From assembly GCA_964655235.1 (NCBI GenBank), contig CAZZLX010000001.1, positions 1,842-65,841 on the forward strand: a DNA stretch of 64,000 nucleotides. The letters are read 5' to 3'. Of the stretch, positions 18,436 to 60,480 are shown in pieces (positions within the stretch are counted from its first letter, which is position 1; every line of letters begins with the position of its first letter). The notes below the pieces were generated by a model. It searched no databases. It worked only from the letters and a program-made list of their open reading frames with translations, and had not been told where the DNA came from. The translations under genes were made by a program, and so were the position numbers. This stretch comes from an uncultured Rhizobium sp. (GTDB taxonomy: Bacteria; Pseudomonadota; Alphaproteobacteria; SHVZ01).

Positions 18436-18436
18436 A

Positions 18437-37058: not shown

Positions 37059-37122
37059 CCGTGAGCCGCGGGCCTTGGACCCGAAAACGGCATGTCGTCA
37101 ACGTAACTGGAGCTGGAAAAAA

Positions 37123-42027: not shown

Positions 42028-44097
42028 TCAGGCCCGAGCCGGCTGTCCAGGGTGTTCCTGCATCGCGACCCGACGGAGTGCCTTGACGAGGTTGTGGGCG
42101 TAGAGATTTGCGTTGCAGAGGGGTGAGTTGATCACCTGGCTGCGGAGGTTGGCTCGGAGGGTTGCGAGTGCGGGGAGATCTCGCGCCAGCGCATCGGCCC
42201 TCTCGACGTAGCCCTGGTGGTCGGGCGCCACCAGATGATCGAGCCCCACCAGCGGCAGGAAGCCCGCTCCCATCCGCGCGATGAAGCGCTCGCCCGCCAG
42301 CGTCACCACCGGAACCCCCATCCACAGAGCCTGGAACGTCGCGTTGCACCCGACGAACGGAAACGGATCCAAGGCAATGTCGACCTGATGGTAGATCGAC
42401 AGATGCGCCGTCCCCTCCGTCGAGCCGGCCTCGAACTCGATCCGGTCCCCGCTCACCCCAAACCCTGAGAACGACGACCGGATATGGGCGCGAAGCGTCG
42501 GGTCTTCGTAGAAATGCAGATACTTGAGAAGAAGCCGAGATCCCGGAACGGCCCGCATCACTGATGCCCAGGTCGACAACGTCGAGGGCGACAGCTTCGC
42601 CGGGTTGTTGAAGCACCCGAACGTCACCCGGCCCGAGCTCAGAGCCGGAAGCGCCGATACCAGAGGCTCCTCCGGCGGGCGGCGGAACACGTACCAGCAC
42701 GGCAGCCGCAACAGCCTCTCGCTGAACTTCTCCTCCGTCCCCAATGGCGTCGTCGCCTCGTCGCCTACCCAGTAGTCCATCTCCGCCAGACCCGTCGTCG
42801 TCAAATCGAACAGAGACGCCTGGACCGGCGCCGCCCTCGACGCAAACACACGAAGACGACCACCAGCCGTGTGACCCGCAACCGATACCAGAACGTCGAT
42901 CCCGTCCTCGCGAACCGCAGAAACAACCTCCTCGTCGCTCAGATCCGCAATCACACGCCACCCATCCGCCAGAGACGCAAATCGAGCACTCATCTCGTCC
43001 GGACGAGCGACATTCGCATACAGAAAAACCTCGACACCCCCCCGATCCATCCCCTCAACAATCGAAAGCAACGTCTCCCCTACCGGGTGGCTGCAGAGGT
43101 CCGCCGATACAAACCCAATTCTGAATTTCCCCCTGGATCCGTTCGCAAGCGTACGCGACGGAGCGGGCGCATTCCGGATCATGCTGCCACTCGATGTCGC
43201 ACGCATCAGCTCGGATGCGCTCGTCGAGTCCGCATAGAGTAGCGTCATCACGTAGTTGCCGCGAAAAGCCGCATTCGTCGGCGCGACCGCCAAGGCCCGC
43301 CGAACGAACGCTTTGGCGCCCTCCGCGTCGCCCAAGGCGAGAGCGATATTTCCCAGATTGTTGAGGGCTTCCGCCTCGTCGGAATGCAGCGCCAAGGCGC
43401 GCCTGAGAGAGCGCCGCCCTTCGCCGATGCGTCCCGCGCGCTGATAGGCGCGACCCAGATTGTTGTGACTGCTCGCCGCGTGCGGGCTGAGCCGAGCCGC
43501 CTTCTCGAGAACCACTGTCGCCCGATCGGCCTCGCCTCCGACCACCAGGGCGCGGCCGAGATTGGCGAGGATCTCGGCCGCATCCGGCGAGAGCGATACC
43601 CCCCGCATCAACGCCTTCTCCCCGTGAGGAAGGTCACCCCGATCGCAAAGCAGCAATCCGAGATTTGACTGGGCGGCCGGATTGTTAGGCTCGACGGCGA
43701 CGTGACGGCGCGAAAATCGGAGCAGCGTTCCGGCACTCTCGATCGCGCGGCATCGAGCGACCAGGTTCCCGTATGCCGACCCGAACATGACGTCGCAGCT
43801 GATCGCACGACGATAGAGGCGTGCCGCAGATCCAAGGTCCGCGCCCGCCAGGGCTTCGCCCAGGTTACCGTGGAACACCGCGACGGACGGGTCGATCGCA
43901 AGCGCAACGTGAAGGCACCGAAGCGCGTCGCTCGACCGCCCTCGCTGCAGCTCGATCAGGCCCAGATAGTGCCATGCCCAGGAATGGAGCGGGACGCCCG
44001 ACAGCACGTCGCGGTAGCGCCTCTCGGCCTCGTCAACCCGGCCGACCTGATGCAGACCTAGGCCTTCCTGGAATATCCCGTTCCAATCACCTGCCAT
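42028..44097 (-). CDS. TPR-repeat protein with C-terminal GT41-like domain (paralog B)
   Basis: 689 aa. The N-terminal TPR region is distinct. From ...VGETLLSIVEG onward it is identical to paralog A until the final ~10 residues. Confidence 0.85.
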   Translation of the reverse strand: MAGDWNGIFQEGLGLHQVGRVDEAERRYRDVLSGVPLHSWAWHYLGLIELQRGRSSDALRCLHVALAIDPSVAVFHGNLGEALAGADLGSAARLYRRAISCDVMFGSAYGNLVARCRAIESAGTLLRFSRRHVAVEPNNPAAQSNLGLLLCDRGDLPHGEKALMRGVSLSPDAAEILANLGRALVVGGEADRATVVLEKAARLSPHAASSHNNLGRAYQRAGRIGEGRRSLRRALALHSDEAEALNNLGNIALALGDAEGAKAFVRRALAVAPTNAAFRGNYVMTLLYADSTSASELMRATSSGSMIRNAPAPSRTLANGSRGKFRIGFVSADLCSHPVGETLLSIVEGMDRGGVEVFLYANVARPDEMSARFASLADGWRVIADLSDEEVVSAVREDGIDVLVSVAGHTAGGRLRVFASRAAPVQASLFDLTTTGLAEMDYWVGDEATTPLGTEEKFSERLLRLPCWYVFRRPPEEPLVSALPALSSGRVTFGCFNNPAKLSPSTLSTWASVMRAVPGSRLLLKYLHFYEDPTLRAHIRSSFSGFGVSGDRIEFEAGSTEGTAHLSIYHQVDIALDPFPFVGCNATFQALWMGVPVVTLAGERFIARMGAGFLPLVGLDHLVAPDHQGYVERADALARDLPALATLRANLRSQVINSPLCNANLYAHNLVKALRRVAMQEHPGQPARA
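42074..43085. repeat. Perfect 1012-bp direct repeat, copy 2
   Basis: See copy 1. Confidence 0.9.
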
Positions 44098-44967: not shown

Positions 44968-46596
44968 ATGAAGACGAAAAGGAACCGGGATCTGCAGCGG
45001 GCGCGCAACGCGCCCGTTGCCGGCAATCTTTTTGCCGAGGCCAGCCGCGCGTACACCGCTGGCGATCTCGACGCCGCCGAGCGTCACGCGAGCCAGCTCC
45101 TACGCGCCCAGCCAAGAAATGCCGATGCACTCAATCTCATCGGCGTCATCGCCGCCGCCCGAAGCGACATGCCTCGCGCGGCGAAATTTCTCGGCCAGGC
45201 GGCCGAGCTCATGCCTCGATCCGCCTCGATCCGAGGCAATCTCGCCCTCGCGCTGAAGATGCTCGGCCGCTGGCATGACGCGATCGCGCAGGCACGCGAG
45301 GGAGTCCGGCTCGAGCCCGGCAACTCGATCATCTGGAACACGCTTTGCGCCGCGCAATACGAGGTCGGGGACCATGCCGGCGCCTTGGTCAGCGGCCGCA
45401 CGGCGATCGCCCTAGGCCCGACCATGGCCGAGGCCTGGAACAACTTCGGTAACGTTCTCGTCGAGTTCGGCCACGCGCGGACGGAAAGCGCCTTTCGCAT
45501 GGCCCTCGCGCTCAATCCCTTCCTGGTTCAGGCATGGTCGGGGCTCGGCAGCGCCGCGCTCAGGCAGAAGCGCCACGAAGCGGCTCAAGCGGCCTTCGAG
45601 CGAGCCCTCACCATCCGCTGGCCCAGCCGATGGTGGCCTGGAAATCGCCCGGCCTCCGTCCTCCCGCCGCCGCAGAGTCTCACCAACACCGTCAAGCTGC
45701 GCCACGACATCGAGCAGTTCGAAGCAGGCCGCCGGTCGGGGATCTATGGAGCGGAGTTCGATCCGATCATTTCGGCCTATCGCCGTGCACTCGATCGATT
45801 TGTCGGGCGATATGGCGCGTCGGCGAATGGCGCCCTTCATCCCGAGGACGTCGCTGCCATCGGCGATGTCTACGGACGCATCGTCAACTGGACCCCTCCG
45901 GCCAAGATCGCCGGTGGAGCCGTGGCGGCCGATTGGGATCGCGCTGACGTCGCACGACGCTACGCGGTGCCCCCCGGTATCTGCTGGGTCGACGGCTTCC
46001 TGACGGCGGAGGCCCTCTCCTCTCTCCGCAAGTTCTGCCTCGACTCGACCATCTGGAACGACATCAGTCACAATTACCAGGCGGCGCCGGTCGCTCGCGG
46101 ATATCTCGGGGCCTACGCCGCCGACGGCTTCTTCGCCCCGCTGCTCTTCCAGATCGCCGAGGAGCTGGCCGCGGCGCTTCCCGGGATCTTCGGTGGACAC
46201 CCTCTTCGCCAGATCTGGGCGTACAAGTACGAGAAGAAGCTCGAGGGCATCGGAATCCATGGCGACGACGCCGCGGTCAACGTCAACTTCTGGATCACGC
46301 CGGACAGCGCCAACCTGGACCCGGACTCCGGTGGCCTGATCGTCTATCCGGTGGAGGCGCCGGCTGATTGGGACTTCGCCGCGATCAATACCGAGCCGGA
46401 GACGATGCATCGCTTCGTCGAGGCGGCCGGGGAGCCTCCGGTCAATGTTCCGTACCGGCAGAACCGCGCCGTCATCTTCAACTCCGACCTCTTCCATGCG
46501 ACGGCGCCTCTCCGATTCCGTCCTGGATACGAAAACCGCCGCATCAACGTGACGATGCTGTTCGGCCAGCGACAGCCACGATCACGTTCAGCATGA
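44968..46596 (+). CDS. TPR-repeat protein with C-terminal 2OG-Fe(II) oxygenase-like (cupin) domain; candidate protein hydroxylase
   Basis: 542 aa. N-terminal TPRs. The C-terminus has IGIHGDDAAVNVNFWITPD (HxD) and a distal VIFNSDLFHAT (His). The architecture resembles Asp/Asn beta-hydroxylase. Confidence 0.7.
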   Translation: MKTKRNRDLQRARNAPVAGNLFAEASRAYTAGDLDAAERHASQLLRAQPRNADALNLIGVIAAARSDMPRAAKFLGQAAELMPRSASIRGNLALALKMLGRWHDAIAQAREGVRLEPGNSIIWNTLCAAQYEVGDHAGALVSGRTAIALGPTMAEAWNNFGNVLVEFGHARTESAFRMALALNPFLVQAWSGLGSAALRQKRHEAAQAAFERALTIRWPSRWWPGNRPASVLPPPQSLTNTVKLRHDIEQFEAGRRSGIYGAEFDPIISAYRRALDRFVGRYGASANGALHPEDVAAIGDVYGRIVNWTPPAKIAGGAVAADWDRADVARRYAVPPGICWVDGFLTAEALSSLRKFCLDSTIWNDISHNYQAAPVARGYLGAYAADGFFAPLLFQIAEELAAALPGIFGGHPLRQIWAYKYEKKLEGIGIHGDDAAVNVNFWITPDSANLDPDSGGLIVYPVEAPADWDFAAINTEPETMHRFVEAAGEPPVNVPYRQNRAVIFNSDLFHATAPLRFRPGYENRRINVTMLFGQRQPRSRSA

Positions 46597-48152
46597 CGGA
46601 AGTGCCGCCGTTGGCACACCCGTCGACCGACATCGCGGAAGCGCGCCGCACGCTTCTAGCCGAAGCCACCCGATCGACGGCCGCTTCTCGCCGGGCCTAT
46701 CGAGCCCTCCTCGCCCTCGTGCCGGGGGACGCCCACACGCTCATGTCCCTCGGCACACTCGCGGCCCAGGCGAGAGATGCCGAGGACCTGGCACTTCTTC
46801 GGCGCGTGCCTCACCTCGATCCGGAAGGCGCCGACGGGTATGCCAACTATGGAAGCGCTCTTCTCTCTAGGCGGGATCCCGCTTCGGCGCAGCCGGCGCT
46901 CCGCCGGGCTCTCGCCTTGCAGCCCGACCATGTCACCGCCTGGTATAACGAAGGCCTTTCCCGTCAGCAGGCCGGAGAGATCCGGGATGCGTCGACGGCC
47001 TACCGGCGCGCCGTCGCCGCCAGTCCATGCCACATCGAGGCGCGCCGAAATCTCGCCGTCTGCCTTCATTCCCTGAAGAAGATCGACGAGGCCCTGCATC
47101 TCCTGCAGGACCTCGTGAGGGAAACCCCCGATCGGGCCGACATACGCGAGAACATCGCCTTCATCCTCCTCGACATCGGACGGACCGACGACGCCTTCGA
47201 GGAGCTGGCGCGCGCCGCCGAGACCCGATACGGGCTCGGCTCGGCAGCTTCCGGCTCAGATCCGGCGCTCAGCCAGGTCACACCCGTCCGGCTCAAGCAC
47301 GATCGCGAGCAGCTCGATCATCTGCTCGCCCAAGGTCGTGGCGACGCTGCGCTCCGGCAGCTTCGCGACACCTACGCGGGCTTGCTGGAACAGGTGCCTC
47401 ACACCGCGCACGCGGTCCAGGCGCTCGCGCTCTCGCGGGAACAGTCCCGTGTCCTGGCGCCCTGGTACGGCCGTCGCTACGCGAGACGAGAGGCTTTGGC
47501 GGTTCCCGGCAGCGCGCTCAATCCCGCGCTCGATCTTCACGACGTCGAACGGCGCTATCTCGACTCCAGACCGGAAATCACCGTCATCGACGGTCTGCTT
47601 TCCGACGCATCGCTGCTCGCGCTCCGCCGGTTCTGCCTGGAGAACAGCTTCTGGATCCGAAGCTACGGCGGCGGCTATCTCGGATCATTCATGGAGGACG
47701 GTTTCGTCTGCCCGCTGATCGCGCAGATTGCCGGTGAGCTCAGGGCCGGCATGAGCCGGGTCGTCGGGCCGCATCCATTGAAGAAGGTCTGGGGCTTCAA
47801 GTACGACAGCCGCCTTTCTGGCATCAATCTGCATGCGGACTTCGCCGCTGTGAACGTCAATTTCTGGATCATGCCCGACAGTGCAAATCGCGATCCGTCC
47901 TCGGGTGGCCTGATCATCTGGGACAAGCCGGCGCCACTGTCCTGGGGGTTCGAGGAGTACAACCGCTCGCCTGAGCTTGCCCGGCGCTATCTCGATGGCG
48001 AAGGGGCGAAGGCCATCACCGTGCCCTATCGCGCCAACCGGGCGGTCATCTTCAACTCGAACCTGTTCCACGAGACCGATCGCATCGACTTCAAGGACGG
48101 CTACGAGAACCGGCGCGTCAACATCACGCTTCTCTACGGATCGCGATCATGA
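46593..48152 (+). CDS. TPR-repeat protein with C-terminal 2OG-Fe(II) oxygenase-like domain (paralog)
   Basis: ATG at 46593 overlaps the upstream stop (ATGA). Motifs: INLHADFAAVNVNFWIMPD, VIFNSNLFHET. ~45% identical to the preceding gene over the C-terminal domain. Confidence 0.7.
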   Translation: MTEVPPLAHPSTDIAEARRTLLAEATRSTAASRRAYRALLALVPGDAHTLMSLGTLAAQARDAEDLALLRRVPHLDPEGADGYANYGSALLSRRDPASAQPALRRALALQPDHVTAWYNEGLSRQQAGEIRDASTAYRRAVAASPCHIEARRNLAVCLHSLKKIDEALHLLQDLVRETPDRADIRENIAFILLDIGRTDDAFEELARAAETRYGLGSAASGSDPALSQVTPVRLKHDREQLDHLLAQGRGDAALRQLRDTYAGLLEQVPHTAHAVQALALSREQSRVLAPWYGRRYARREALAVPGSALNPALDLHDVERRYLDSRPEITVIDGLLSDASLLALRRFCLENSFWIRSYGGGYLGSFMEDGFVCPLIAQIAGELRAGMSRVVGPHPLKKVWGFKYDSRLSGINLHADFAAVNVNFWIMPDSANRDPSSGGLIIWDKPAPLSWGFEEYNRSPELARRYLDGEGAKAITVPYRANRAVIFNSNLFHETDRIDFKDGYENRRVNITLLYGSRS

Positions 48153-49853
48153 CGGCATCGCGTCGCGAACTGCATTCTCGATGCTGGCGGCCATGGCGCG
48201 GCCGTCGCATAGAGGCGATGCGCGCATGCGGTCGCGCAGGCTGCCTCTGAGGGCGGCCCGGCCCACATCGTCGGCGGCGAGTGCGACGGCCTTCGCGACG
48301 TAATCGTCCTCGTCGGTCGCGGACAGCTCTGGAAGTCCCAGAACACTGACGAACGCGTGGCTGTAGCGTCCGAGGACGCGGTCCCCCGCCAACGTAATCA
48401 CCGGCACGCCCATCCACATCGCTTCCAGCGTGGTGATCACGCCCCCATACGGCGTAGGGTCGAGCGCGATATCGATATCGGCATAGCTCGCCATGTGCGC
48501 GCCGATATCGGGCGTCGGCAGCCGGAGCTCGACGACGTCGGGCGCGACGCCGGCCCTGGAAAAGAGCGATCTCACCCGCGCCTGGGCTTCCGCCCCGAAG
48601 CCCCCTGCCTTCAGGACCAGGCGCGATCCCGGCACGGCGTTCAGGATCCTTGCCCAGAGACGTATTGTCCGCCCCGAAAGCTTGGCCAGCTGGTTGAAGC
48701 TGCCGAACACCACCCCCCGCGACGGCGCTGCAACCGCGTTCGGCAGATCAGCCAGGGGATCATAGACATAGGCCAGCGGCAGGCGCTCGACCCTCTCGAT
48801 GAACCAATCCTCGGCCCCTTGCGGGATGATCCAGCGATCGCCCAGAACCAGATCCACGGCATCCAGGCCCAGGCTTCCCATCGGCATCCAGTTCACCTGG
48901 AGCCTCCCCGGACGCCTCGCCAGAGCCAGCACCCGCGAGCCCGGCGGATAGCCGAGACTATCGATGACCACATCGATGTCGTCGTCGACGATGGCTGCTG
49001 CGACGGCCTCGTCGGAAAGCCCGGAAACGTCGCGGAACCCGGTCGAGGCGGCACGGAATCTCGCCGTGATCTGATCCTGACGATCCGCCGGAACGTCGGA
49101 ATAGCAGAACGCCTCGATCCGGGCGCGATCATGACCTTCGATCGTCGGCAGCAGTGTAAAGGCAGTGGTGTGGAGAGCGAAACTGCGGCCGGCGAGATAG
49201 CCGATGCGAAGGCGGCGCCCCGTTCCGCTGCGCTTTCGCGATGAGGCTCCGCACGCCGGCAGGGATCGCGCGAAGCGTTCATCGAACTCACGCGCCAACG
49301 CCAGGGACGTTGCCGGTCCAGCCTCTTCCAGCAGGAAGGATGCGCAGATCCGGGCTGCTTGCAGGCGGGGGGTCCGGGGAAGCCGATCCCCCGCGCCGAG
49401 CTTTGCCGCCGCCGGTGCGTCGCCGATCGCCAGGAGTTTGCTGATCGCCAAAAGCGCGATTTCCTCGGATGCCGGCTCCACGGCCAGCGCCCGCCGCGCC
49501 CAGTCGCTCCTTGTTTCGAAAAGGCCGGCGAGCGCCGCCATGCAGGCAGGATCGTCAGGTGCAAGGGCGAGAAGCCGCCGCAGGGGTCGTTGCGTGAGCT
49601 CGCGGCGACCGCCCTGCGTCATCGTCGCCACCAAGGCCCGAAGCGCAGGAATGTCGGCCGGCGCCAGAGCCAAGGTTCGCCTCAGCATCACCTCCGCAAG
49701 CGATGCGTCGGCTTGCCACCAAGTCGCCGCGAGCAGCTGCCAGGACCAGGGGATCGAAGGCTCTCTGACGATGGCGGCCCGTAACGATCGACGCGCCCCG
49801 TCTGTCTTACCTAAAGACAGATGAGCCAGGATGCTCGCTACGATGTCGCTCAT
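48147..49853 (-). CDS. TPR-repeat protein with C-terminal GT41-like domain
   Basis: 568 aa. Motifs: LRIGYLAGRSFALHT, VVFGSFNQLAKLSG, IDIALDPTPYGGVITTLEAMWMGVPVITLAGDRVLGRYSHAFV. Confidence 0.85.
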   Translation of the reverse strand: MSDIVASILAHLSLGKTDGARRSLRAAIVREPSIPWSWQLLAATWWQADASLAEVMLRRTLALAPADIPALRALVATMTQGGRRELTQRPLRRLLALAPDDPACMAALAGLFETRSDWARRALAVEPASEEIALLAISKLLAIGDAPAAAKLGAGDRLPRTPRLQAARICASFLLEEAGPATSLALAREFDERFARSLPACGASSRKRSGTGRRLRIGYLAGRSFALHTTAFTLLPTIEGHDRARIEAFCYSDVPADRQDQITARFRAASTGFRDVSGLSDEAVAAAIVDDDIDVVIDSLGYPPGSRVLALARRPGRLQVNWMPMGSLGLDAVDLVLGDRWIIPQGAEDWFIERVERLPLAYVYDPLADLPNAVAAPSRGVVFGSFNQLAKLSGRTIRLWARILNAVPGSRLVLKAGGFGAEAQARVRSLFSRAGVAPDVVELRLPTPDIGAHMASYADIDIALDPTPYGGVITTLEAMWMGVPVITLAGDRVLGRYSHAFVSVLGLPELSATDEDDYVAKAVALAADDVGRAALRGSLRDRMRASPLCDGRAMAASIENAVRDAMPS

Positions 49854-50109
49854 AAGCGTTCAGACACCAGGGGCCGGAACCGCCCTACGCGCTTCTCTCT
49901 GCTCGAGTCTCTCACCTCATCAAGCGCGGCATTGTTGTTCCGCAATATCCATGGTCGAAGCCGAATTGGGACGGGGTTTAAAGAACCACCTTTCGGCGAG
50001 TTGAGCGATTGAATCCTCTTACCAATAGCGTTTGAATATGCTGACATTTTTTTGCGTCTACGGGAATGCACCTTGACGCTTGTCCCCGCGCCTAAGGGTA
50101 AAACGAAGA

Positions 50110-50721
50110 ATGTTTGCTCTCTCTCCCGGTGCCACTATTTCGACGGATACGCAAGCATCGGGGCCGGTATCTCTAGGAGACGGGGTTGAAATTTTAGCCG
50201 GAGTCCGATTTGGCAAATTCACCCTTGTAAACGCTTGGTCAACAGTCAATGCAGCTGATATCGGGAACTACGTTTCTATCGGTGAATATGTTCGCATTAA
50301 TGTCTTCAATACGCATCCGATCAACTGGCTAAGCACGCATCCTTTTCAAGTCAATGACGCTCACTTCTCAGAGATTCCGGGCTATCGAGACGTTCACCGA
50401 ATTGCTCGAGCCTGGCATCCCGGAACACTTCACATCGGCCACGATGTCTGGATCGGCAGCCACGCCAAGTTACTGAACGCAGTAACCATCGGAACCGGCG
50501 CCGTTGTTGGCGCTGCCGCCGTTGTCGCAGACGACCTTCCGCCGTTCGCTATCGTTGGCGGGGTCCCGGCCAAGGTAATTCGTTACAGGTTCGAACAGCC
50601 AACGATCGCCCGCCTTCTTGCGTCCCGGTGGTGGGATCTTGACCCATGGGACCTAAGTGGTGTGCCGTTCAATGACATCAATCTCGCCCTCGATGAGATA
50701 GAACGAAGGAAAGGCGCATGA
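50110..50721 (+). CDS. Xenobiotic acetyltransferase family (Vat/CatB-type hexapeptide-repeat O-acetyltransferase) in a low-GC island
   Basis: MFALSPG start (ATG 50110). Motifs: HPINWLSTHPF, IGHDVWIGSHAKLL, PPFAIVGGVPAKVIRYRF, SRWWDLDPWDL, matching the VatD/SatA/CatB pattern. GC is about 52% against about 68% for its neighbours; the upstream 250 bp are also AT-rich. Confidence 0.8.
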   Translation: MFALSPGATISTDTQASGPVSLGDGVEILAGVRFGKFTLVNAWSTVNAADIGNYVSIGEYVRINVFNTHPINWLSTHPFQVNDAHFSEIPGYRDVHRIARAWHPGTLHIGHDVWIGSHAKLLNAVTIGTGAVVGAAAVVADDLPPFAIVGGVPAKVIRYRFEQPTIARLLASRWWDLDPWDLSGVPFNDINLALDEIERRKGA

Positions 50722-50766
50722 GGGCACAACCAAGCTTGCCGCGCCTCTGAAGAGCACCACCGAGAT

Positions 50767-52503
50767 TTAGCGCTCTCCGATGATGTTACGAATGGCGGTC
50801 TCGATGGCCGATGCCATCGCGCGACCGTCACCGAGAAGCGATCGTTTCATGCGCGAGCGAAGGTCGCTGCGCAGCGTCTCCCGCCGCAACTCGTCGGCAG
50901 CTAGCGCCTGGGCAGCTGCGACGTAACCATCCTCGTCGGCGACCCCAAGCTCCGGCATCCCGAGGGTATTTACGAACGCATAGCCATAGCGTCCCAGGAT
51001 TCGATCGCCCGCCAAGGTAACCACCGGGACTCCCATCCACATGGCCTCCAGCGACGTAATAACGCCACCATAAGGCGTCGGATCGAGAGCGATGTCGATA
51101 TCGGCATAGCTCGCCAAGTGCTGTTCGAACCCCGCTATCGGAAAGCGAAGCTCGACACGGTCAGCATTGATGCCTTCGCGCTCGAATTGCGCCAAAAGTC
51201 GTTGTGCGGTCTCTTCCGTCGTTAAACCGATCGCCTTGAGCATCAAGCGGGCATGCGGAACCAAACGCAATATTCGCGCCCAAAGACGGATCGTCCGCGT
51301 CGACAGCTTGGCAAGCTGGTTAAAACTCCCGAACACCACGTCGCGCGCTGGCGACGGCGACGGCTCGGGCATCACCACTAGCGGATCGTACATGATGGAG
51401 AGAGGCAACCGCACGACCCGTTCATCAAACCATCGCTCCGCCCCGACGGGAATTGTCCATCGGTCGCCGAAGACCACGTCGACCATACCCGAGCCAACAC
51501 TTCCCATCGACATCCAGTGGACCTGTAGCCGAGCGGGGCGGCGCGCCAGCGCCAGGAGACGAGATCCCTGCGGATAACCCAGGCTATCGATGACGACGTC
51601 TATCTCGTCGTCGGCGATCGCGGCGGCGAATGCCGAGTCGTCGAGGCTTAAGGTGTGCCTGAACCCAGTGGACGCGGCGAAGAAGCGCTCGGTGATCGAA
51701 TCCTGCCGTGACGGCCGCACATCGGAGTAGCAGAAGACTTCGACAGACTCACGATCATGGTGCTCGATTGTCGGCAGCAGCGTAAATGCAGCCGTGTGGA
51801 GCCGAAAGGAGTCACCCGCGACATAGCCGATGCGAAGCTTGCGCCGCCGACGATGAATGTTTGGAGCCCGACCGATACCCAATGGCCGGGCGAAGTGTTC
51901 GTCGAAGGTCCGAACGAGATCGAGAAACTGCGCAGGGCCGGCATCTTCGAGAAGATAGGCCGTACAGATCCGCGCCGCCTGGAGCCGATGATCAGAACCG
52001 TCCGAGACGGAATCAAGAAGCTTGGCCGCCTCTTGCGCCCGGCCCCGGACGAGGAGCTGGGCGTGACGTTCGAGGATCAGATCCACATTGCCTGGATTCA
52101 GCAAAAGGGCCCGCCGGCACCACGACAGGGCCGCGGCGCCGGGCATGTTCGCCAGGTTGGCGAGCGTGGCCGGTTCGTCCGGCTGCACGGCAGCGGCCAT
52201 CCGCAGCCAGCGTAGCGCGGCGATCGGCCTTCCCGACGACTTGAGCGTCGCCGCCAGGGCATTGAGGGCGGACACGTTCAACGGGTCGAGCGCCAGCACC
52301 CGGCGGAGCCAAATCTCGGCGTTTGCCGCGTCGTGCTGCCAGCGCATCGCCGCGAGAAGGTGGAGCGAGGTCCCGAGCCGCGGCTCGTCCGCGGCCAGGC
52401 GGCGCAGGGCCGCTTCCGCCTGGGCGACGCGCCCTTGAGCAAAATCCGCCCACGCCGACGCCAGCTGCGCCTGCGCTGTCTCGCGTCCGGAAGCCGCCGT
52501 CAT
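50767..52503 (-). CDS. TPR-repeat protein with C-terminal GT41-like domain (paralog of 48147..49853)
   Basis: 578 aa, ~75% identical to the 48147..49853 product. Motifs: LRIGYVAGDSFRLHT, VVFGSFNQLAKLST, IDIALDPTPYGGVITSLEAMWMGVPVVTLAGDRILGRYGYAFV. Confidence 0.85.
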   Translation of the reverse strand: MTAASGRETAQAQLASAWADFAQGRVAQAEAALRRLAADEPRLGTSLHLLAAMRWQHDAANAEIWLRRVLALDPLNVSALNALAATLKSSGRPIAALRWLRMAAAVQPDEPATLANLANMPGAAALSWCRRALLLNPGNVDLILERHAQLLVRGRAQEAAKLLDSVSDGSDHRLQAARICTAYLLEDAGPAQFLDLVRTFDEHFARPLGIGRAPNIHRRRRKLRIGYVAGDSFRLHTAAFTLLPTIEHHDRESVEVFCYSDVRPSRQDSITERFFAASTGFRHTLSLDDSAFAAAIADDEIDVVIDSLGYPQGSRLLALARRPARLQVHWMSMGSVGSGMVDVVFGDRWTIPVGAERWFDERVVRLPLSIMYDPLVVMPEPSPSPARDVVFGSFNQLAKLSTRTIRLWARILRLVPHARLMLKAIGLTTEETAQRLLAQFEREGINADRVELRFPIAGFEQHLASYADIDIALDPTPYGGVITSLEAMWMGVPVVTLAGDRILGRYGYAFVNTLGMPELGVADEDGYVAAAQALAADELRRETLRSDLRSRMKRSLLGDGRAMASAIETAIRNIIGER

Positions 52504-52513
52504 GAGCTGGCGT

Positions 52514-53302
52514 TCAGAATCCGGAGAAGCGGGTCAGCGCCACGGTCGAACCATTCGGCAGGATGATCGATCCCGCCGTCGTGCTCGAGAAGGTCGCCGT
52601 GATCTGCCCGGGGGTCGAGGTCCTGGAGGGTGTGGTGTAGGCGCCTGCCAGCGTCGGGCCGCCGCCATACTCCTCGAGCGTCGCCGTCATCGTCGGCCTG
52701 AGGCCGAAAGGACCGAAGACCAGGCTGCCGGTCGCCGTGTACCAGCGGCTGGTGCCGTCGCTTTCGTACATCATCAGCAGCATGAAGAGCTGGTTGCCCT
52801 GCACCTCGATGAAGTAGCCGCGGCCGGGCTCGTTCGCGTTCCACCACCACCCCGTCTCCGGAGCCCCGGATGGCCGCCCGATCGTCGCGCCGCTGCCGAC
52901 GAATTCGTAGCGCTTCAGCGCGAGCGACTGGGCGCCCGGAAGGATGATGGACGCGTCGGTTGCCGACGTCGTCGTGAACGAGAGGGTCCCGACGGCGATC
53001 GTCGAGGTCGGAGCGCGCGCCGCGCCCGACAGCGTCTGGCCGCCCGCATACTCGTACAGGTCGCCCGAGAACACGCTCGACGAGAACAGCGACCCGACCG
53101 ACGAGTACCAGGGCGAGGTTCCCCCTGAGCGATATCCAAGCACCCCGATCAGCGCCCGGGAGCCGCTGACCTCGACGATGTAGCCCCGTCCGGGCTGGCT
53201 GGTGCTCCACCAGACGCCGGTCGAGATCTGCGCCTGTGCCTGGACGGCCCAGAGCCCGAGAAGCAGGCAAGCCAGGAGCTGGAAGACGCGGTGTTTCATC
53301 AT
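52514..53302 (-). CDS. Secreted protein with two tandem ~120-aa repeats of an unknown domain
   Basis: ATG at 53302/53299 gives MMKHRVFQLLACLLLGLWAVQAQA|Q, a signal peptide. Repeats: TGVWWSTSQPGRGYIVEVSG...GTSPWYSSVGSL and ETGWWWNANEPGRGYFIEVQG...GTSRWYTATGSL, joined by T/S-rich linkers. 11 bp upstream of, and co-oriented with, the GT41 gene. Confidence 0.7.
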   Translation of the reverse strand: MMKHRVFQLLACLLLGLWAVQAQAQISTGVWWSTSQPGRGYIVEVSGSRALIGVLGYRSGGTSPWYSSVGSLFSSSVFSGDLYEYAGGQTLSGAARAPTSTIAVGTLSFTTTSATDASIILPGAQSLALKRYEFVGSGATIGRPSGAPETGWWWNANEPGRGYFIEVQGNQLFMLLMMYESDGTSRWYTATGSLVFGPFGLRPTMTATLEEYGGGPTLAGAYTTPSRTSTPGQITATFSSTTAGSIILPNGSTVALTRFSGF

Positions 53303-53401
53303 GGTGCGATGATATCGCATTTCGCGTGTCCGTTCTTTCGGCGCTTGTTCCCGACTGCCGGCCCTTGGCACACTGGAGGTCCCCCACCCATCGGATTCGC
53401 C

Positions 53402-54609: not shown

Positions 54610-55374
54610 ATGACCACCGTCGCGATCATCCAGGCGCGCATGCGCTCGACCCGCCTTCCGGGGAAGGTCCTGGCCGACCTCGGCGGCAAACCGGTGCTCC
54701 AATGGGTCGCCGATGCCGCCCGGGCCATTCCCGGCGTCGACGAGGCGATCGTCGCGACCTCCACCGGTGCGGATGACGATGCCGTCGCGGCCTGGGGAGC
54801 GCGGTCCGCCGTCCGCATCTTCCGGGGCGACGAAGATGACGTTCTCGGACGCTTCGCCGGGGCCGCCCATCTCGGCAAGGCCGATCTGATCGTCAGGGTC
54901 ACTGCCGACTGTCCGCTGCTCGATCCCGTCGAGGCAGGGAAGGTCGTCGCGGCGGTCGCCGGCGGGGACGCGGACTACGCCTGCAACAACGACCCGCCGA
55001 CCTATCCCGACGGGCTCGACTGTGAGGCCTTCACCCGCGCCGCGCTCGATCGGGCCGCGGCCGAAGCGCGCCGGCCCAGCGAACGCGAGCACGTCACTCT
55101 CTTCATCCGCGAGCCCAAGAACGGCTTCCGCCGCATCAACATCCGTTGTCCGCATGGCGATCTCAGCGGCGAGCGATGGACCTTGGATACGCCCGAGGAT
55201 CTCGCCTTGCTCCGCGCCATCGCGCCCAGCCTCAGCGGTACGCGACCGCCGCGGCTGACCGAGGTGCTGGCGGCGATCGACCGGTCCCCGGAGCTCCGAT
55301 GCATCAATGGCGGCATCGTCCGCAACGAAGGGCTGATCAAGTCGCTGGCGCGCGACCGCGCCCAGGGCTTCTGA
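54610..55374 (+). CDS. Nonulosonic-acid cytidylyltransferase, SpsF/FlmC-type (PseF-like)
   Basis: MTTVAIIQARMRSTRLPGKVLADLGGKPVLQWV is the SpsF/FlmC acylneuraminate cytidylyltransferase family N-terminal signature. 254 aa. Confidence 0.8.
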   Translation: MTTVAIIQARMRSTRLPGKVLADLGGKPVLQWVADAARAIPGVDEAIVATSTGADDDAVAAWGARSAVRIFRGDEDDVLGRFAGAAHLGKADLIVRVTADCPLLDPVEAGKVVAAVAGGDADYACNNDPPTYPDGLDCEAFTRAALDRAAAEARRPSEREHVTLFIREPKNGFRRINIRCPHGDLSGERWTLDTPEDLALLRAIAPSLSGTRPPRLTEVLAAIDRSPELRCINGGIVRNEGLIKSLARDRAQGF

Positions 55375-55378
55375 CGCC

Positions 55379-56254
55379 GTGCAGTGCCTTGTTCTCGGCG
55401 CGACCGGCCTCCTTGGGCAAGCCTTCGTGACGACGGGCCTGGCCCGGGGCCACAGGATGACCGCAGCCGCCCGCCGCGGCGCCGCGCTCCCGATCGACGC
55501 GACCGACGACGATGCCCTGGTCCGGGCGATCGACGGGCTTCGTCCCGATGCCGTGATCAACTGCACCAGCTACGGCTCGCTCGAAGCCTGCGCCAAGGAC
55601 CCCGGAGCGGCATACCGGATCAACGCACGTCTCAACGCGCGCCTGGCCGAGCTCTGCCGCGCTGCCGACGCCCTGCTTGTGGCCATCGGGACGGATCACT
55701 ATTTCACCGGCGACGGGGCCGCCAGGCATGACGAGCTTGCCGATATCCGGCTCCTAAACGACTATGCCGTCGGAAAATATGCCGGCGAGCAATTGGCGCT
55801 TACCTGGCGGCGTTGCCTCGCCGTACGGACCAACGTTACCGGCTTTCGCGGATGGGCCGGCCAGCCCACCTTCGTCGAGTGGGCGTGCGAAAGCCTGCGG
55901 GCCGGCGCACCGATCGAGCTCTTCGACGACTATTATTGCTCCACCATCGACTCGGGCAGCCTGGCGCTGGCCGTGATCGAGATGATGGAGCGGGGAGTCA
56001 CTGGGTTGTTCAATGTCGCCTGCCGTGAGGTCGCGTCGAAGCGCCGTTTCGTGCTCGCCCTCGCCGACCGCCTGTCGCTTCCGGGACATCACCTGCGCAC
56101 CGGATCGGTGAGGTCGCTGTCGGTCCCGCGCGCCGAGAGCGCCGGTCTCGACGTCGCCAAGGCCGAGGCCGCCCTCGGCCGGCCGCTCCCGGGCTTCGAC
56201 GCGGTGATCGGCACGCTGGCGAACCAGGCTCGTGCCGCGGCAGGACGCGCATGA
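55379..56254 (+). CDS. RmlD-like NAD(P)-dependent sugar-nucleotide reductase/epimerase
   Basis: GTG start. LVLGATGLLGQAF Rossmann motif, followed by …DATDDDALVRAIDGLRPDAVINCTSY…, as in the RmlD substrate-binding family. 291 aa. Confidence 0.75.
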   Translation: MQCLVLGATGLLGQAFVTTGLARGHRMTAAARRGAALPIDATDDDALVRAIDGLRPDAVINCTSYGSLEACAKDPGAAYRINARLNARLAELCRAADALLVAIGTDHYFTGDGAARHDELADIRLLNDYAVGKYAGEQLALTWRRCLAVRTNVTGFRGWAGQPTFVEWACESLRAGAPIELFDDYYCSTIDSGSLALAVIEMMERGVTGLFNVACREVASKRRFVLALADRLSLPGHHLRTGSVRSLSVPRAESAGLDVAKAEAALGRPLPGFDAVIGTLANQARAAAGRA

Positions 56255-57942
56255 TCATCCTCGGCGTTTCCTTCCTCAGCGACGCCTCCGCCGTCGTTCT
56301 TCGCGACGGACGGCTGGTCGCGGCCATCGCCGAGGAACGTCTCAATCGCGTCAAGCAGTGGAACGGCATCCCGCACGGCGCGATCGCCAAGGTGCTGGCG
56401 ATGGCCGGGATCACGCTCGACCAGGTCGACGTGGTCGCGACCCACGGCGCCGCGCCGTCCGAGCCGCCCTCCGAACCCTATCGCGAGAAGGAGCGTGCGA
56501 TCCGCGCCGCCGGCCTTCCTGCCGATCTGGCGGAAAGCCAGCTCAAGCGGCTGGCCGAGCGCGAAGGGCACGAGCGGCGCGTCCTTGCCGAACGGACGCC
56601 CGGCTATCTGGCCGAGGTGCGGGCGCTCGGCCGGCCGCTCGATGTCCATGGCCACCATGAGTCCCACGCCGCGACCGCCCTGATCGGGCGCGGCGCTGGC
56701 GACGGCTGGATCGTGACGCTGGACGGATGGGGCGAGGACGGCTCCGGCACCGTCTGGAAGACCGATGGCGCCCGCATGGAGCGTGTCGCCTTCTCCAATA
56801 CCTTCGACTCCCTCGGCTATTTCTACGGCGCCGTCACCAAGGCGCTGGGATTCATCCCCCACCGCCACGAGGGCAAGGTGCTCGGCCTCGCGGCCTACTG
56901 CCAGCAGCCGCAGTCGTTCCGCGAGCTTCGCTCGATGATCGACTACGACCCCGGCCGCTTCCGCTTCCTCGGGCGCATGGAGCGAGGCCTCTATGTGCCC
57001 CGCATGGAGAACCCGCTGCTGTCGGCGCTCGTCGCCCGCCTGCCCCGCGAGGACATCGCCGCCGGAACCCAGCAGAGCCTCGAACAGGTCGTCTCCGAGC
57101 TGATTGACGATTTCGGTCCCGGCGCGCACAAGATCATGGTGGCCGGCGGCGTCTTCGCCAATGTGAAGCTCAACCAGCGGATCGCCGAACGGCCGAACGT
57201 CACCGACGTCTACGTCTTTCCCAACATGGGGGACGGTGGCCTCGCGGCAGGGGCCGCCTGGCTCAGCCACCTGCAGCGCGTCGGCACGACGCCCGAGCGG
57301 TTCGAGACGGCGCTGCTCGGCCCGGCGCCGACCGAAGCCGAGGTGCTGCACGAGCTCAAGAGCAGCGGCCTCGCCTACACACGCCCGGCCGACATGGAGG
57401 ATCGCGTCGCCGAGCTGCTGGCATCCAATCATGTCGTGGCGCGCTGCGCCGGCCCGATGGAGTACGGACCCCGCGCGCTCGGCAACCGCAGCATCCTCTA
57501 TCACGGCTCCGATCCGGGCGTGAACGACTGGCTGAACCGCCGGCTCAAGCGCTCCGAGTTCATGCCGTTCGCGCCGGCGACGCTGGCCGAGGCAGCGGCA
57601 GAGCGCTACATCGGCCTGGAGAAGGCGCGCGAGACCGCGAAGTTCATGGCGATCACCTTCGCCTGCACCAAGGTCATGCAGGACGAGGCGCCGGCGGCCG
57701 TCCATGTCGACGGCACGGCACGCCCGCAGGTCGTGGATCCCGTCAGCTACCCGGCCTTCCACAAGATCCTCACCGCCTATCGGCGCAGGACCGGCCGGGC
57801 CTCGGTGATCAACACCAGCTTCAACATGCACGAGGAACCGATCGTCTGCTCGGCCGCGGACGCCATGCGGGCGTTCCGGGCGAGCGACCTCCCCTACCTC
57901 GTCCTCGGCGACTATCTTGTGTCGTCGCCGTCCGCCGCCTGA
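56251..57942 (+). CDS. Carbamoyltransferase (NodU/CmcH family)
   Basis: 563 aa. MIILGVSFLSDASAVVL..., HHESHAATA metal motif, and a C-terminal domain ...FMPFAPATL...SVINTSFNMHEEPIVCS. ATGA overlap with the upstream gene. Confidence 0.85.
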   Translation: MIILGVSFLSDASAVVLRDGRLVAAIAEERLNRVKQWNGIPHGAIAKVLAMAGITLDQVDVVATHGAAPSEPPSEPYREKERAIRAAGLPADLAESQLKRLAEREGHERRVLAERTPGYLAEVRALGRPLDVHGHHESHAATALIGRGAGDGWIVTLDGWGEDGSGTVWKTDGARMERVAFSNTFDSLGYFYGAVTKALGFIPHRHEGKVLGLAAYCQQPQSFRELRSMIDYDPGRFRFLGRMERGLYVPRMENPLLSALVARLPREDIAAGTQQSLEQVVSELIDDFGPGAHKIMVAGGVFANVKLNQRIAERPNVTDVYVFPNMGDGGLAAGAAWLSHLQRVGTTPERFETALLGPAPTEAEVLHELKSSGLAYTRPADMEDRVAELLASNHVVARCAGPMEYGPRALGNRSILYHGSDPGVNDWLNRRLKRSEFMPFAPATLAEAAAERYIGLEKARETAKFMAITFACTKVMQDEAPAAVHVDGTARPQVVDPVSYPAFHKILTAYRRRTGRASVINTSFNMHEEPIVCSAADAMRAFRASDLPYLVLGDYLVSSPSAA

Positions 57943-57952
57943 GACCGAAATC

Positions 57953-59377
57953 ATGAACGACATCGCGCCGCTGCCGAACCACATCCCGCCCCGGACGATC
58001 ACCCGCTTCACGCGATCGGACGCCTATCGCGCCCAGGTCCACGAGGCGATCGCCGGCGGCGCCCACACCTATTCGAAGGGCGACGACCAGTTCCCGATCC
58101 GCTCCCCGGCCGCGATCGCCCGCGGCAAGGGCGGTCGGGTCTGGGATCCCGACGACAACGAGTATGTCGACGTCGCTCTCGGCCTCGGCTCGATCAGCCT
58201 TGGCCATGCGTACGAGCCGGTGCTCGCGGCGGTCCGCGCGCAGCTCGACCTCGGCGTCAACTTCCAGCGGCCGGCGACAGTGGAGCTCGAACTCGCCCAT
58301 GCGCTGAAGGCCGTCATCCCGGGTGCGGAGCGGGTCAAGTTCGCTAAGAACGGCTCGACCGTCACGACGGCCGCGGTGAAGCTGGCGCGCGCGTTCACCG
58401 GCCGCGACCTCGTTGCCTTTCCGTTCAACCACCCGTTCTACAGCTACGACGACTGGTACATCGGCCGGGGCAAGGCCGCCTCCGGCGTCCCCACCGGCAC
58501 GATGGCGATGTCGCTGACCTACGACTCGACCAAGCCGGACACGCTGGCCGCGCTGTTCAAGCAGCATCCCGGCAAGATCGCCGCGGTCATCACCGAGACC
58601 GAGGAACTGTTCCCGACCTCGCCCGAGTACATCCGCGAGGTCGAGCGGCTGGCGCGCAAGGACGGCGCCCTGCTCATCCTCGACGAGATGGTCTCCGGCT
58701 TCCGCTCGAGCTTCCCCGGCGCCTATCCGCGCCTCGGCCTCACGCCCGACCTGGTGACCTGGGGCAAGGGTGCCGGCAACGGCTTCTCCTTCTGCGCGCT
58801 GACCGGGCGGGCCGACGTCATGGACCTCGGCGGCCTGAAGCAGTTGGAGCGGCCCCGCGTCTTCCTTATCTCGACCACCCATGGCGGCGAGGCGCATGCG
58901 CTGGCGGCCGGGCTCGCCGTGCTCGAGGAGTACCGCCGCCACGACGTACTCGGCCATCATCATCGGCTCGTGGCGCGGATGGCGGCGTCGTTCAAGGCGA
59001 CGATCGACCGCTATGGCCTCGGCGATGCGATCCAGGCCTTCGCCTCTCCTTGGCGCATCGTTTTCGTCTGCAAGGATGCCAAGGGCGCGGTGTCGCTCGG
59101 CCACCGCACGCTGCTGATGCAGGAGATGATTGGCCGCGGTGTCCTGTTCCAGGGCCTGTTCCTGCCCTGCTTCGCGCACACCGACGCCGACATGGAGCGG
59201 ATCGAGCAGGCTTTCGACGCGTCCTGCCAGGTCTATAAGCTGGCGCTCGAGCACGGCTACGAGCGCTACCTCGACGGCGAGCCGCTCCGGCCGGTGTTCC
59301 GGCGCTACAACGGCTGTCGCCAATCCTGCCCGACCGAGCCTTGCCCGCACGAGCAGACCTGCCGCACGACGCCGTGA
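57953..59377 (+). CDS. Class-III (HemL/GSA-aminomutase-like) PLP-dependent aminotransferase
   Basis: ATG at 57953 (MNDIAPLP). ...LILDEMVSGFR...TWGKGAGNGF has the PLP-lysine context, and HGGEAHALAAGLAVLE fits the fold. The unusual Cys-rich C-terminal tail is unexplained. Confidence 0.78.
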   Translation: MNDIAPLPNHIPPRTITRFTRSDAYRAQVHEAIAGGAHTYSKGDDQFPIRSPAAIARGKGGRVWDPDDNEYVDVALGLGSISLGHAYEPVLAAVRAQLDLGVNFQRPATVELELAHALKAVIPGAERVKFAKNGSTVTTAAVKLARAFTGRDLVAFPFNHPFYSYDDWYIGRGKAASGVPTGTMAMSLTYDSTKPDTLAALFKQHPGKIAAVITETEELFPTSPEYIREVERLARKDGALLILDEMVSGFRSSFPGAYPRLGLTPDLVTWGKGAGNGFSFCALTGRADVMDLGGLKQLERPRVFLISTTHGGEAHALAAGLAVLEEYRRHDVLGHHHRLVARMAASFKATIDRYGLGDAIQAFASPWRIVFVCKDAKGAVSLGHRTLLMQEMIGRGVLFQGLFLPCFAHTDADMERIEQAFDASCQVYKLALEHGYERYLDGEPLRPVFRRYNGCRQSCPTEPCPHEQTCRTTP

Positions 59378-60408
59378 GGCGCGGCGCGCTCGTCATCCGC
59401 GCGGACGCTGATCCGACCATCGGCATCGGACATGTAGGACGGACGCTTGCCTTGAGCGCCGCCTGGCGCCAGGGCGGCGGGACGGTGCGCTACGTCACGA
59501 CCGCGCCGCTGTCCGCGGGGGCAAGATCCTGGATCGCCTCCGCCGGCATCGAGTTCGAGGTCATCGAGGCCGAGCGCTACTCCGACGAGGATGCGCGGCA
59601 GACGGCAGCGCGGGCCACCGGCGCGACGGTGGTCATGGACGTCTTCGGAACCCCCCGCGCCTATCGCACGGCGCTTCGAAGCCAGGTCGAGCGGCTCGTG
59701 ATCATCGACGATACCGGAGGGCCGGGTCCCTGGTCGGCCGACGTCATCGTCAACCAGAACCACGGCGCCTCGGCCGCGCTCTATCCTCAGCACGATGAAG
59801 GGTCGGCGTTGCTGCTGGGGCCGCGCTTCGCACTGCTCCGTCCGGAGTTCGCCCGAAGACGGGCGTTGAGACACCGCGCCGAAGGCCGAGTCCACCGCAT
59901 CGCGGTCAGCCTCGGCGGGACCGATCCCAAGGACGCGGCATCCCTCGTCCTTTCGGCCTTCGCGGCCCTGCCCGAGTCCGGCTGGCGGGCGATCCTCGTC
60001 GCCGGCGCCGGCAACCCGCGTGCCGCGGCCCTGAAGGCGCGGACCGCAGCCCTCGGCAGGCCGGTCCACGTGATCCGCAGTCCCAGCTCGATGGCGAGGC
60101 TCCTTGCCTGGGCCGATCTCGCGATCCTCGCCGGCGGGGTCACCGTGTGGGAGGCGCTGTCGCTGGGCGTTCCGGTGATCGGCATCGCCGTCGCCGACAA
60201 TCAGGTGCCGGCGGCCGAAGCCCTCTCCCGCGACGGCCTCTGGCATTTTCTCGGCCAGGTCGAGGAGATCGGGGCTGCGCAGGTCTCCGATGCGATCGAG
60301 CGGCTTCGTGCCGACTCCGGGGAGCGCCGACGGCTGTCGGCGGCCGGTCAAGCGCTGGTGGATGGAAGAGGCGCGGAACGGGTCGCCGACGTACTGGCCC
60401 GTCTCTGA
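59374..60408 (+). CDS. pseG: UDP-2,4-diacetamido-2,4,6-trideoxy-beta-L-altropyranose hydrolase (PseG)
   Basis: GTG at 59374 overlaps the upstream stop (GTGA). ALVIRADADPTIGIGHVGRTLAL is the PseG signature, and the C-terminal half is MurG-like (GGVTVWEALSLGVPVIGI). Confidence 0.82.
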   Translation: MRRGALVIRADADPTIGIGHVGRTLALSAAWRQGGGTVRYVTTAPLSAGARSWIASAGIEFEVIEAERYSDEDARQTAARATGATVVMDVFGTPRAYRTALRSQVERLVIIDDTGGPGPWSADVIVNQNHGASAALYPQHDEGSALLLGPRFALLRPEFARRRALRHRAEGRVHRIAVSLGGTDPKDAASLVLSAFAALPESGWRAILVAGAGNPRAAALKARTAALGRPVHVIRSPSSMARLLAWADLAILAGGVTVWEALSLGVPVIGIAVADNQVPAAEALSRDGLWHFLGQVEEIGAAQVSDAIERLRADSGERRRLSAAGQALVDGRGAERVADVLARL

Positions 60409-60480
60409 CGGCCGCCCCTGGCCCCGGGCCGGCAGGATCCCCAAATGACGGCAATGCGCGTATCGGCTAAGAAGGGCCCC

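Follow-up and report, generated by a model that had tools for sequence, protein, structure and literature searches.

We analysed a 64,000-nucleotide (nt) stretch of a contig from an uncultured Rhizobium sp. (GenBank CAZZLX010000001.1, positions 1,842 to 65,841), referred to here as the window, and describe a 913-nt islet at 49854-50766 that contains a single gene. The islet reaches from the start codon of one glycosyltransferase gene, GT41-A, to the stop codon of its paralogue, GT41-B (table 1). Its sole open reading frame (ORF) lies on the opposite strand to both and encodes an acetyltransferase of the xenobiotic acetyltransferase (XAT) class, with a left-handed β-helix and relatives that are named 'CatB-related'. 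An earlier model-made description of this DNA (the first-pass annotation) gave the coordinates of the two flanking minus-strand genes exactly, and both products combine a tetratricopeptide repeat (TPR) region with a GT41 domain (PF13844). Its estimate that the paralogues are about 75% identical was too high: the proteins share 59% amino acid identity over 536 residues, and the DNA is 60% identical overall and 66% identical in the 3′ half.

The GC content of the islet is 0.539 versus 0.665 across the whole window, so the anomaly described in the first-pass annotation is present, with figures that replace its approximately 52% and 68%. At both scan lengths used, 612 and 913 nt, the islet is the lowest-GC stretch of the 64 kb (z = −5.4 and −5.0, respectively), and the next-lowest stretches have a GC content of 0.57-0.59. 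AT-rich flanks had also been proposed; this holds for the spacer between the divergent starts of GT41-A and the acetyltransferase gene (GC 0.523) and fails for the spacer between the convergent stops of the acetyltransferase gene and GT41-B (GC 0.62). GC at third codon positions (GC3) is 0.534 in the acetyltransferase gene versus a mean of 0.804 for 30 window genes (standard deviation 0.051, minimum 0.731; z = −5.3), with neighbouring genes ranging from 0.73 to 0.90. The codon-adaptation index (CAI), calculated relative to the same 30 genes, is 0.436 versus 0.698 ± 0.069 (z = −3.8). With outlying values on both measures, the gene shows a genuine and pronounced anomaly of composition. The absence of such a difference on recalculation had been named beforehand as a possible refutation of foreign origin, and the gene still differs. 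The mechanically called ORF opens at a TTG codon at 50080; we prefer the ATG at 50110 as the gene start, because an identical public protein (P0001) uses it and homology with an orthologue described below (L004) begins there.

The translated protein contains all three motifs highlighted in the first-pass annotation (HPINWLSTHPF, GHDVWIG and PPFAIVGGVPAKVIRYRF), together with an IRYRF...WW motif. It matches the Pfam Hexapep profile PF00132 with 45.7 bits (cut-off 27), placing it in the hexapeptide-repeat superfamily. By sequence, the closest solved structures are the type B chloramphenicol acetyltransferases and the Pseudomonas enzyme PaXAT (E = 1e-21 to 5e-21), followed by ApmA and VatA/VatD. 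A HMMER alignment to PaXAT (PDB 1XAT) puts His69 of the query (NTHPINW) on chain residue 79, which we take to be the catalytic histidine. The features of the XAT class are present, namely a loop that carries the histidine (residues 69-105) and helices near the C-terminus (163-172 and 190-202). We modelled the protein with AlphaFold from 47 homologues; the model has high confidence (predicted local distance difference test 94.3, predicted template-modelling (TM) score 0.88) and consists of a β-helix with short, regularly spaced strands. Comparison of this model with the PDB using Foldseek yielded top matches exclusively to CatB, VatA, VatD, PaXAT and ApmA, all of them left-handed β-helix enzymes, at TM-scores of just 0.5-0.6 and identities of 22-34%. 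Twelve residues are invariant in the 47 homologues (G52, H69, D112, W114, G116, G128, G130, G151, R160, F161, W174 and W175), a set that fits a conserved catalytic and coenzyme A (CoA)-binding core. We assign the protein to the XAT structural class, which includes CatB, Vat, PaXAT and ApmA. Sequence and fold searches agree on this point and the catalytic histidine aligns, as expected from the XAT-class assignment made in the first-pass annotation.

That annotation had gone further and called the enzyme 'Vat/CatB-type', which is right at the level of the class and wrong at the level of the family. The NCBIfam equivalog model for CatB (NF000490) scores 88.5 bits against a cut-off of 350, and over residues 47-177 only, and that for Vat (NF000311) gives 91.6 bits where 300 are required. 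Models for single Vat proteins (A, C, D, E, F, H and I) give 62-82 bits, with cut-offs of 400-475. In place of the search of a resistance-gene database that had been suggested as a check, we searched 72,556 plasmids and 50,697 phage records with tblastn. All matches were below 60% identity, and no close resistance-gene match was found in these records: annotated catB2, catB3, catB8 and vat genes reached 32-41% identity over 51-67% of the query. The alignments to catB and vat always begin near query residue 46-51, and the N-terminal approximately 45 residues can be aligned to no CatB or Vat. A neighbour-joining analysis of 204 columns, comprising the window protein, 46 relatives, CatB2, CatB3 and two Vat references, split the four resistance proteins from all the others in every one of 100 bootstraps. 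The window protein lies at distances of 1.5-1.9 from the CatB and Vat references (1.5-1.8 for CatB) and of 0.87-0.95 from its nearest homologues, those of capsule clusters. On this sequence evidence the acetyltransferase is placed outside both the CatB and the Vat families.

Comparison with individual enzymes follows the same lines. CatB2, CatB3, CatB8 and PaXAT share with the window protein the left-handed β-helix, the extended loop with the catalytic histidine (H69 on His79), the GHDVWIG-type coil and the C-terminal IRYRF...WW region, and they provide its best PDB matches in both sequence and fold. However, the alignment starts only at residue ~46, at 36-41% identity and TM-scores of 0.54-0.61, and CatB genes typically occur as integron cassettes beside other resistance genes, as seen in the references that we retrieved, whereas the window gene does not. 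VatA and VatD likewise share the structural class and the catalytic His loop (fold-match E = 6e-10 to 1e-8), but the Vat proteins are only 32-34% identical over 51-62% of the query and fall in a separate clade. An origin from a phage or plasmid was considered and rejected, as the best plasmid matches, to chromid-borne 'CatB-related' genes, are at 35-41% identity and the best phage matches are partial, at 32-41%.

Among 5.8 billion protein clusters, we found the identical P0001, one orthologue at 86% identity (P0002) and then nothing above 50%. The exact gene also occurs in the samples SRR6262237, SRR6262238 and SRR6262244. The search returned 2269 matches at E ≤ 1e-5, and the relatives, where they carry a name, are called 'CatB-related O-acetyltransferase', which places the window protein in that family. 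Full-length relatives show 43-50% identity at 90-98% coverage (165-186 bits); for the NCBI-named members P0008, P0009 and P0028 the two figures are 43-45% and 90-96%. We read the gene neighbourhoods of nine of the nearest homologues, and six lie in clusters for surface or flagellar glycans. P0003 and P0004 are found in capsule clusters with KpsC/S-type Capsule_synth genes, phosphonate synthesis and a TagF-like transferase, with an ABC transporter in the P0004 locus. The Kps-type capsule clusters that hold P0011 and P0039 encode a CTP-transferase and a TagF-like transferase. P0009, from Rhizomicrobium, sits within a nonulosonic-acid cluster (NeuB, NeuC-like, DegT and dehydratase genes) and, like the window gene, is on the opposite strand to its neighbours. 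P0028, from Quadrisphaera, follows a CTP-transferase gene and a TagF-like (Glyphos_transf) gene, near flagellar genes. None of the nine homologues has an integron, transposon or resistance context. At each locus examined the homologue matches the GC content of its own host, so low GC is not a trait of the family.

The window gene thus resembles the 'CatB-related' family in the invariant residues H69, D112, W114, G116, R160, F161, W174 and W175 and in the association of the family with surface-glycan clusters. It differs in sitting on a long branch, in having TPR-GT41 genes, not capsule genes, as neighbours and in being compositionally foreign to its host, whereas the homologues match theirs. 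Many of the homologues also carry an extra extension of ~100 residues (306-341 residues in all) that is absent from the window protein.

With GT41-B as the query against 185,579 species-representative genomes, we identified three syntenic loci, all from metagenome-assembled genomes (L004, L007 and L008), which allow the history of the junction to be followed. In L008, whose flanking genes are 57-84% identical to those of the window, the GT41-B orthologue (69%) is followed directly by the GT41-A orthologue (66%), with no acetyltransferase gene between them. The earliest possible start of GT41-A overlaps the stop of GT41-B, and the sequence of the 256-nt spacer is missing. The L008 junction is therefore an empty site. 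Since L008 carries both GT41 copies, the duplication predates the split from L008, and the abutting orthologues bear out the order of events given in the first-pass annotation, with duplication first and insertion later. In L007, where flanking genes are 77-96% identical to those of the window, approximately 240 nt of unrelated sequence separate the GT41-B orthologue (77%) from what is left of GT41-A, its last ~85 nt. This remnant lies within a 224-nt match (92% nucleotide identity) to window positions 48009-48232, and the next gene follows directly. We interpret the L007 scar as a deletion that took most of GT41-A and whatever preceded the remnant. The L007 spacer contains no acetyltransferase remnants, and its ~240-nt fragment has no Pfam match.

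The third locus, L004 (SRR32051694), is a contig of only 967 nt that carries the 86% identical acetyltransferase orthologue (positions 55-666) in convergent orientation to the 3′ end of a GT41-B-like gene (67% identity over 63 residues), exactly as in the window; 109 nt in L004 correspond to the 45-nt downstream spacer of the window. Between the window and L004, the synonymous divergence (dS) of the acetyltransferase gene is ~1.0, with a ratio of non-synonymous to synonymous divergence (dN/dS) of 0.068, and dS of the GT41-B fragment is ~1.3. The 86% orthologue, the shared linkage to GT41-B and the low dN/dS together indicate that the acetyltransferase gene is old, functional and retained under strong purifying selection, and the divergence estimates make the insertion old rather than recent. 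The first-pass annotation had judged the gene to look horizontally acquired, and this agrees with its outlying composition and codon usage, with its absence from L007 and L008, and with the occurrence of all other homologues at 50% identity or less in unrelated hosts.

Two further possibilities for the form of the insertion were examined and set aside. An integron cassette does not fit, as just 45 nt follow the ORF, with no attC-like inverted repeat and no integrase nearby. A transferred segment reaching into GT41-B does not fit either, as the identity of GT41-B to its L007 and L008 orthologues shows no break near the islet; GT41-B as a whole has a GC content of 0.64, with local values down to 0.57. 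Nothing elsewhere in the window resembles the islet.

Taken together, we favour, with moderate confidence, a single-gene horizontal insertion, into an alphaproteobacterial island for protein glycosylation and nonulosonic acids, of an XAT-class acetyltransferase whose most likely role is accessory acetylation of the glycan made by the surrounding island, with antibiotic inactivation less likely. The first-pass annotation had left resistance and glycan acetylation side by side; of these, the glycan role is the better supported, by six of the nine neighbourhoods, and resistance fares poorly, having failed the family tests. The acceptor is likely to be a sugar of the island's glycan, given the position of the gene in the island, the neighbourhoods of its relatives, the retained linkage to GT41-B and its absence from otherwise syntenic islands. 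This last point also suggests an accessory step rather than a core step of the pathway.

In the proposed sequence of events, a tandem duplication would have given rise to GT41-B and GT41-A, translationally coupled as they appear to be in L008. A single insertion at the B/A junction would then have occurred after the split from L008 and before that between the window and L004, and the acetyltransferase gene and GT41-B would have descended vertically from there under purifying selection, with L007 suffering a deletion. GT41-B and GT41-A of the window are now parted by 913 nt with a gene on the opposite strand, so GT41-A would be expressed either via acetyltransferase antisense sequence or from a new promoter in the spacer. 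The 256-nt spacer presumably holds one or more promoters; an Rfam search of this leader gave zero matches at E ≤ 1, and the idea of a regulatory RNA was dropped. For the enzyme itself, we infer the acceptor substrate, the choice between O- and N-acetylation, the trimeric state and the transfer mechanism. By homology with PaXAT, CatB and Vat, it would form a trimer of left-handed β-helices with active sites at the subunit interfaces. His69, on the extended loop, would serve as the general base that deprotonates a hydroxyl (or amine) of the acceptor for attack on the acetyl-CoA thioester. ApmA is an XAT-class enzyme that carries out N-acetylation, so the class can acetylate either O or N. The N-terminal ~45 residues presumably shape an acceptor pocket different from that of CatB or Vat, and the substrate could be either a nucleotide-activated sugar or the glycan after its transfer, in a strain-variable accessory step.

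The polysialic acid O-acetyltransferases NeuO and OatWY offer a functional analogy, as they too are left-handed β-helix, acetyl-CoA-dependent enzymes and decorate a nonulosonic-acid glycan (polysialic acid). Their similarity to the window protein is weak and limited to the hexapeptide core (E = 4e-7 and 4e-4), and they fall outside the XAT subclass. NeuO is reported to be horizontally acquired itself, being encoded by prophage CUS-3 (PMC3046976). Unlike NeuO, the window gene has no close phage relative among the 50,697 phage records.

Several observations weigh against an inserted gene for glycan acetylation. Three of the nine neighbourhoods are not glycan clusters: P0008 and P0058 adjoin a lytic transglycosylase gene amid housekeeping (ribosomal) genes, and P0022 adjoins a LysR regulator. 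To our knowledge, no member of the 'CatB-related' clade has been biochemically characterized or has a demonstrated substrate, and the acceptor proposed for the window enzyme is deduced from gene neighbourhoods. P0009, the homologue from the nonulosonic-acid cluster, is sister to the window protein in the neighbour-joining tree at a bootstrap of just 30%, and we do not claim this relationship. The top-scoring NCBIfam profile is TIGR03308 (122.2 bits over residues 28-180, under its cut-off of 201.65). XAT-class enzymes can also be promiscuous, so the window enzyme may have weak activity against chloramphenicol or streptogramins. At the DNA level, a repeat search of 49600-51000 found only chance-level 10-13-mers, with no terminal repeats or target-site duplication; a sigma-70 consensus scan of the 256-nt spacer found no site; and a terminator scan gave a single weak hairpin, no better than those in shuffled sequence. 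Finally, GC3 is still 0.53 in the window gene and 0.60 in its L004 orthologue despite a dS of ~1.0 and a GC3 of ~0.8 in the hosts. The persistence of low GC at this divergence would call for either a very AT-rich donor or the maintenance of low GC; no close relative from an AT-rich donor was found among the 5.8 billion protein clusters.

Some of these points lend themselves to a different explanation, which we consider unlikely but worth weighing: the enzyme may acetylate another small molecule, such as a phosphonate intermediate, a peptidoglycan-related compound or a xenobiotic, with the GT41 junction serving merely as a permissive site. TIGR03308 is, after all, the best NCBIfam profile, the capsule clusters around two of the closest homologues also encode phosphonate synthesis (PEP mutase, Ppd and Fe-ADH), and two of the three homologues in non-glycan contexts adjoin a lytic transglycosylase gene. 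The junction has moreover been rearranged repeatedly, as the different ~240-nt fragment and the deletion in L007 attest. However, the window contains no phn or phosphonate genes and the profile score is below its cut-off, so that membership of TIGR03308 is not supported, and the phosphonate genes near the homologues belong to clusters for capsule decoration. A merely permissive site is also difficult to square with the strong purifying selection on the gene and the conservation of its GT41-B linkage in a diverged lineage.

A true resistance gene, active on chloramphenicol like CatB or on streptogramin A like Vat, and drawn from the environmental resistome into a glycan island by chance, we regard as improbable. 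Such a gene would account for the fact that the nearest solved structures are all XAT-class resistance enzymes and for the conserved catalytic histidine and C-terminal CoA-binding motifs; some JGI annotations of relatives do read 'virginiamycin A acetyltransferase' or 'chloramphenicol O-acetyltransferase type B', and the gene looks horizontally acquired. Yet the protein reaches less than one third of the curated CatB and Vat cut-offs, leaves its ~45 N-terminal residues unaligned, matches catB2, catB3, catB8 and vat only partially and at low identity, and is excluded from the CatB and Vat clade in every bootstrap, with fold matches at TM-scores of just 0.5-0.6. Neither the window gene nor the homologues examined have an integron, transposon or plasmid context, and the linkage to GT41-B has been kept across a dS of ~1. 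That the gene was not acquired at all, but is an old resident of odd composition (AT-rich for regulation, for example) lost independently from L007 and L008, is highly improbable: long residence without amelioration at dS ~1, a junction deletion in L007 that could have removed the gene along with GT41-A, and the lack of mobile-element scars would all suit it, but the stop-start overlap in L008 is the expected ancestral operon, which a clean 913-nt loss would be very unlikely to recreate, GC3 and CAI lie far outside the range of 30 host genes, no homologue above 50% identity other than L004 exists in 185,579 species representatives or 5.8 billion clusters, and homologues elsewhere match the GC of their hosts.

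The preferred reading, a single-gene insertion with an accessory glycan role, can be extended into a bolder one, which we put forward tentatively and think rather doubtful. The window enzyme and its relatives from capsule and nonulosonic-acid clusters might all be dedicated glycan acetyltransferases, in a class known biochemically for antibiotic inactivation, here acting on a sialic acid-like sugar of a TPR-GT41 protein-glycosylation system. 'CatB-related' proteins might then form a large glycan-decorating family with the resistance enzymes as a derived offshoot, and the low GC of the gene might reflect selection (for silencing or regulation of AT-rich DNA, for example) and not a recent transfer.

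Automated annotation and surveys of the resistome will probably report this gene as conferring chloramphenicol or streptogramin resistance, which makes it an example of over-calling. The label supported by our analysis is 'CatB-related acetyltransferase', with an annotation of resistance to be added only after assay. The locus also gives a clean before-and-after view of a single-gene insertion at a junction of tandem paralogues, and so of how glycosylation islands gain decoration genes. If the glycan role is true, a large uncharacterized clade, found repeatedly in capsule and nonulosonic-acid clusters, would gain its first substrate. Current understanding would stand, and the gene would be an ordinary accessory one.

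Viewed as a whole, the window is a glycosylation island: it carries at least 10 TPR-GT41 genes and genes for a nonulosonic-acid-type sugar (table 1). The unusually dense GT41 array suggests many acceptor specificities or many glycan variants, and the combination of a carbamoyltransferase with a class-III (not DegT) aminotransferase hints at an unusual sugar derivative. Caulobacter FlmG, a TPR and glycosyltransferase protein, puts pseudaminic acid on flagellins (PMC7591256). We set it beside the GT41 proteins of the window by domain make-up, as an analogy only; there is no flagellin gene in the window.

Table 1. Positions of the islet, its flanking genes and other glycosylation genes in the window.
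Feature	Position	Strand	Description
Islet	49854-50766		913 nt
Acetyltransferase gene	50110-50721	+	203 residues; 'CatB-related', XAT class
Upstream spacer	49854-50109		256 nt, AT-rich
Downstream spacer	50722-50766		45 nt, not AT-rich
GT41-A	48147-49853	−	568 residues, TPR + GT41; PF13844, E = 4.9e-36; downstream paralogue
GT41-B	50767-52503	−	578 residues, TPR + GT41; PF13844, E = 5.1e-38; upstream paralogue, convergent with acetyltransferase gene
TPR-GT41 gene	3961-6258	+	PF13844
TPR-GT41 gene	22187-24112	+	PF13844
TPR-GT41 gene	24121-25881	−	PF13844
TPR-GT41 gene	31233-33182	+	PF13844
TPR-GT41 gene	33179-34948	+	PF13844
TPR-GT41 gene	39972-42023	−	PF13844
TPR-GT41 gene	42028-44097	−	PF13844
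TPR-GT41 gene	61822-63654	−	PF13844
Sugar-pathway genes	2625-3941, 54610-61551		Polysacc_synt_2 dehydratase, cytidylyltransferase, RmlD-like reductase, carbamoyltransferase, class-III aminotransferase, GT28C-like, NeuB

Several observations concern the GT41 genes of the island and its relatives. The scar of deletion and replacement in L007 lies at 11735-12060, at the very junction where the window has its insert, and the two events mark this junction as a rearrangement hot spot. In L008, the final ~350 nt of the two GT41 paralogues (about 11370-11716 and 13080-13431) share ~95% DNA identity, compared with ~60% elsewhere, a pattern that indicates recent gene conversion between the tandem copies. 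GT41-A and GT41-B of the window, separated by the insert, show no such ~95% tract. The second tandem GT41 pair of the window (39972-42023 and 42028-44097) is present in two copies here and in L008 (17482-21601) and in a single copy in L007 (16156-18192), so GT41 copy number is fluid among these relatives.

Elsewhere in the window, the second- and third-lowest GC stretches are 36401-37313 (0.587) and 1091-2003 (0.594), with z-scores of approximately −2.9 and −2.6. The first of these spans the gap 3′ of the TPR gene at 34945-36696 and the start of an ORF without a family match at 37075-38484. Between the glycosyltransferase arrays lies a type II secretion block (10888-21051) that encodes a T2SSE ATPase, T2SSF, a weak match to T2SSK and a secretin. 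Immediately beyond GT41-B, a minus-strand gene (52514-53371) encodes a 285-residue protein with a signal-like hydrophobic N-terminus and two internal repeats (GRGYIVEVSG and GRGYFIEVQG); it has no Pfam or NCBIfam match and is 72-87% identical in L007 and L008, where it is again directly upstream of GT41-B. A further pair of paralogues on the plus strand (44968-46596 and about 46560-48152) has an N-terminal TPR region and a C-terminal domain of ~250 residues without a confident family. This pair shows a faint match to DUF6445 (E = 0.0025) and is kept beside the GT41 genes in both L007 and L008.

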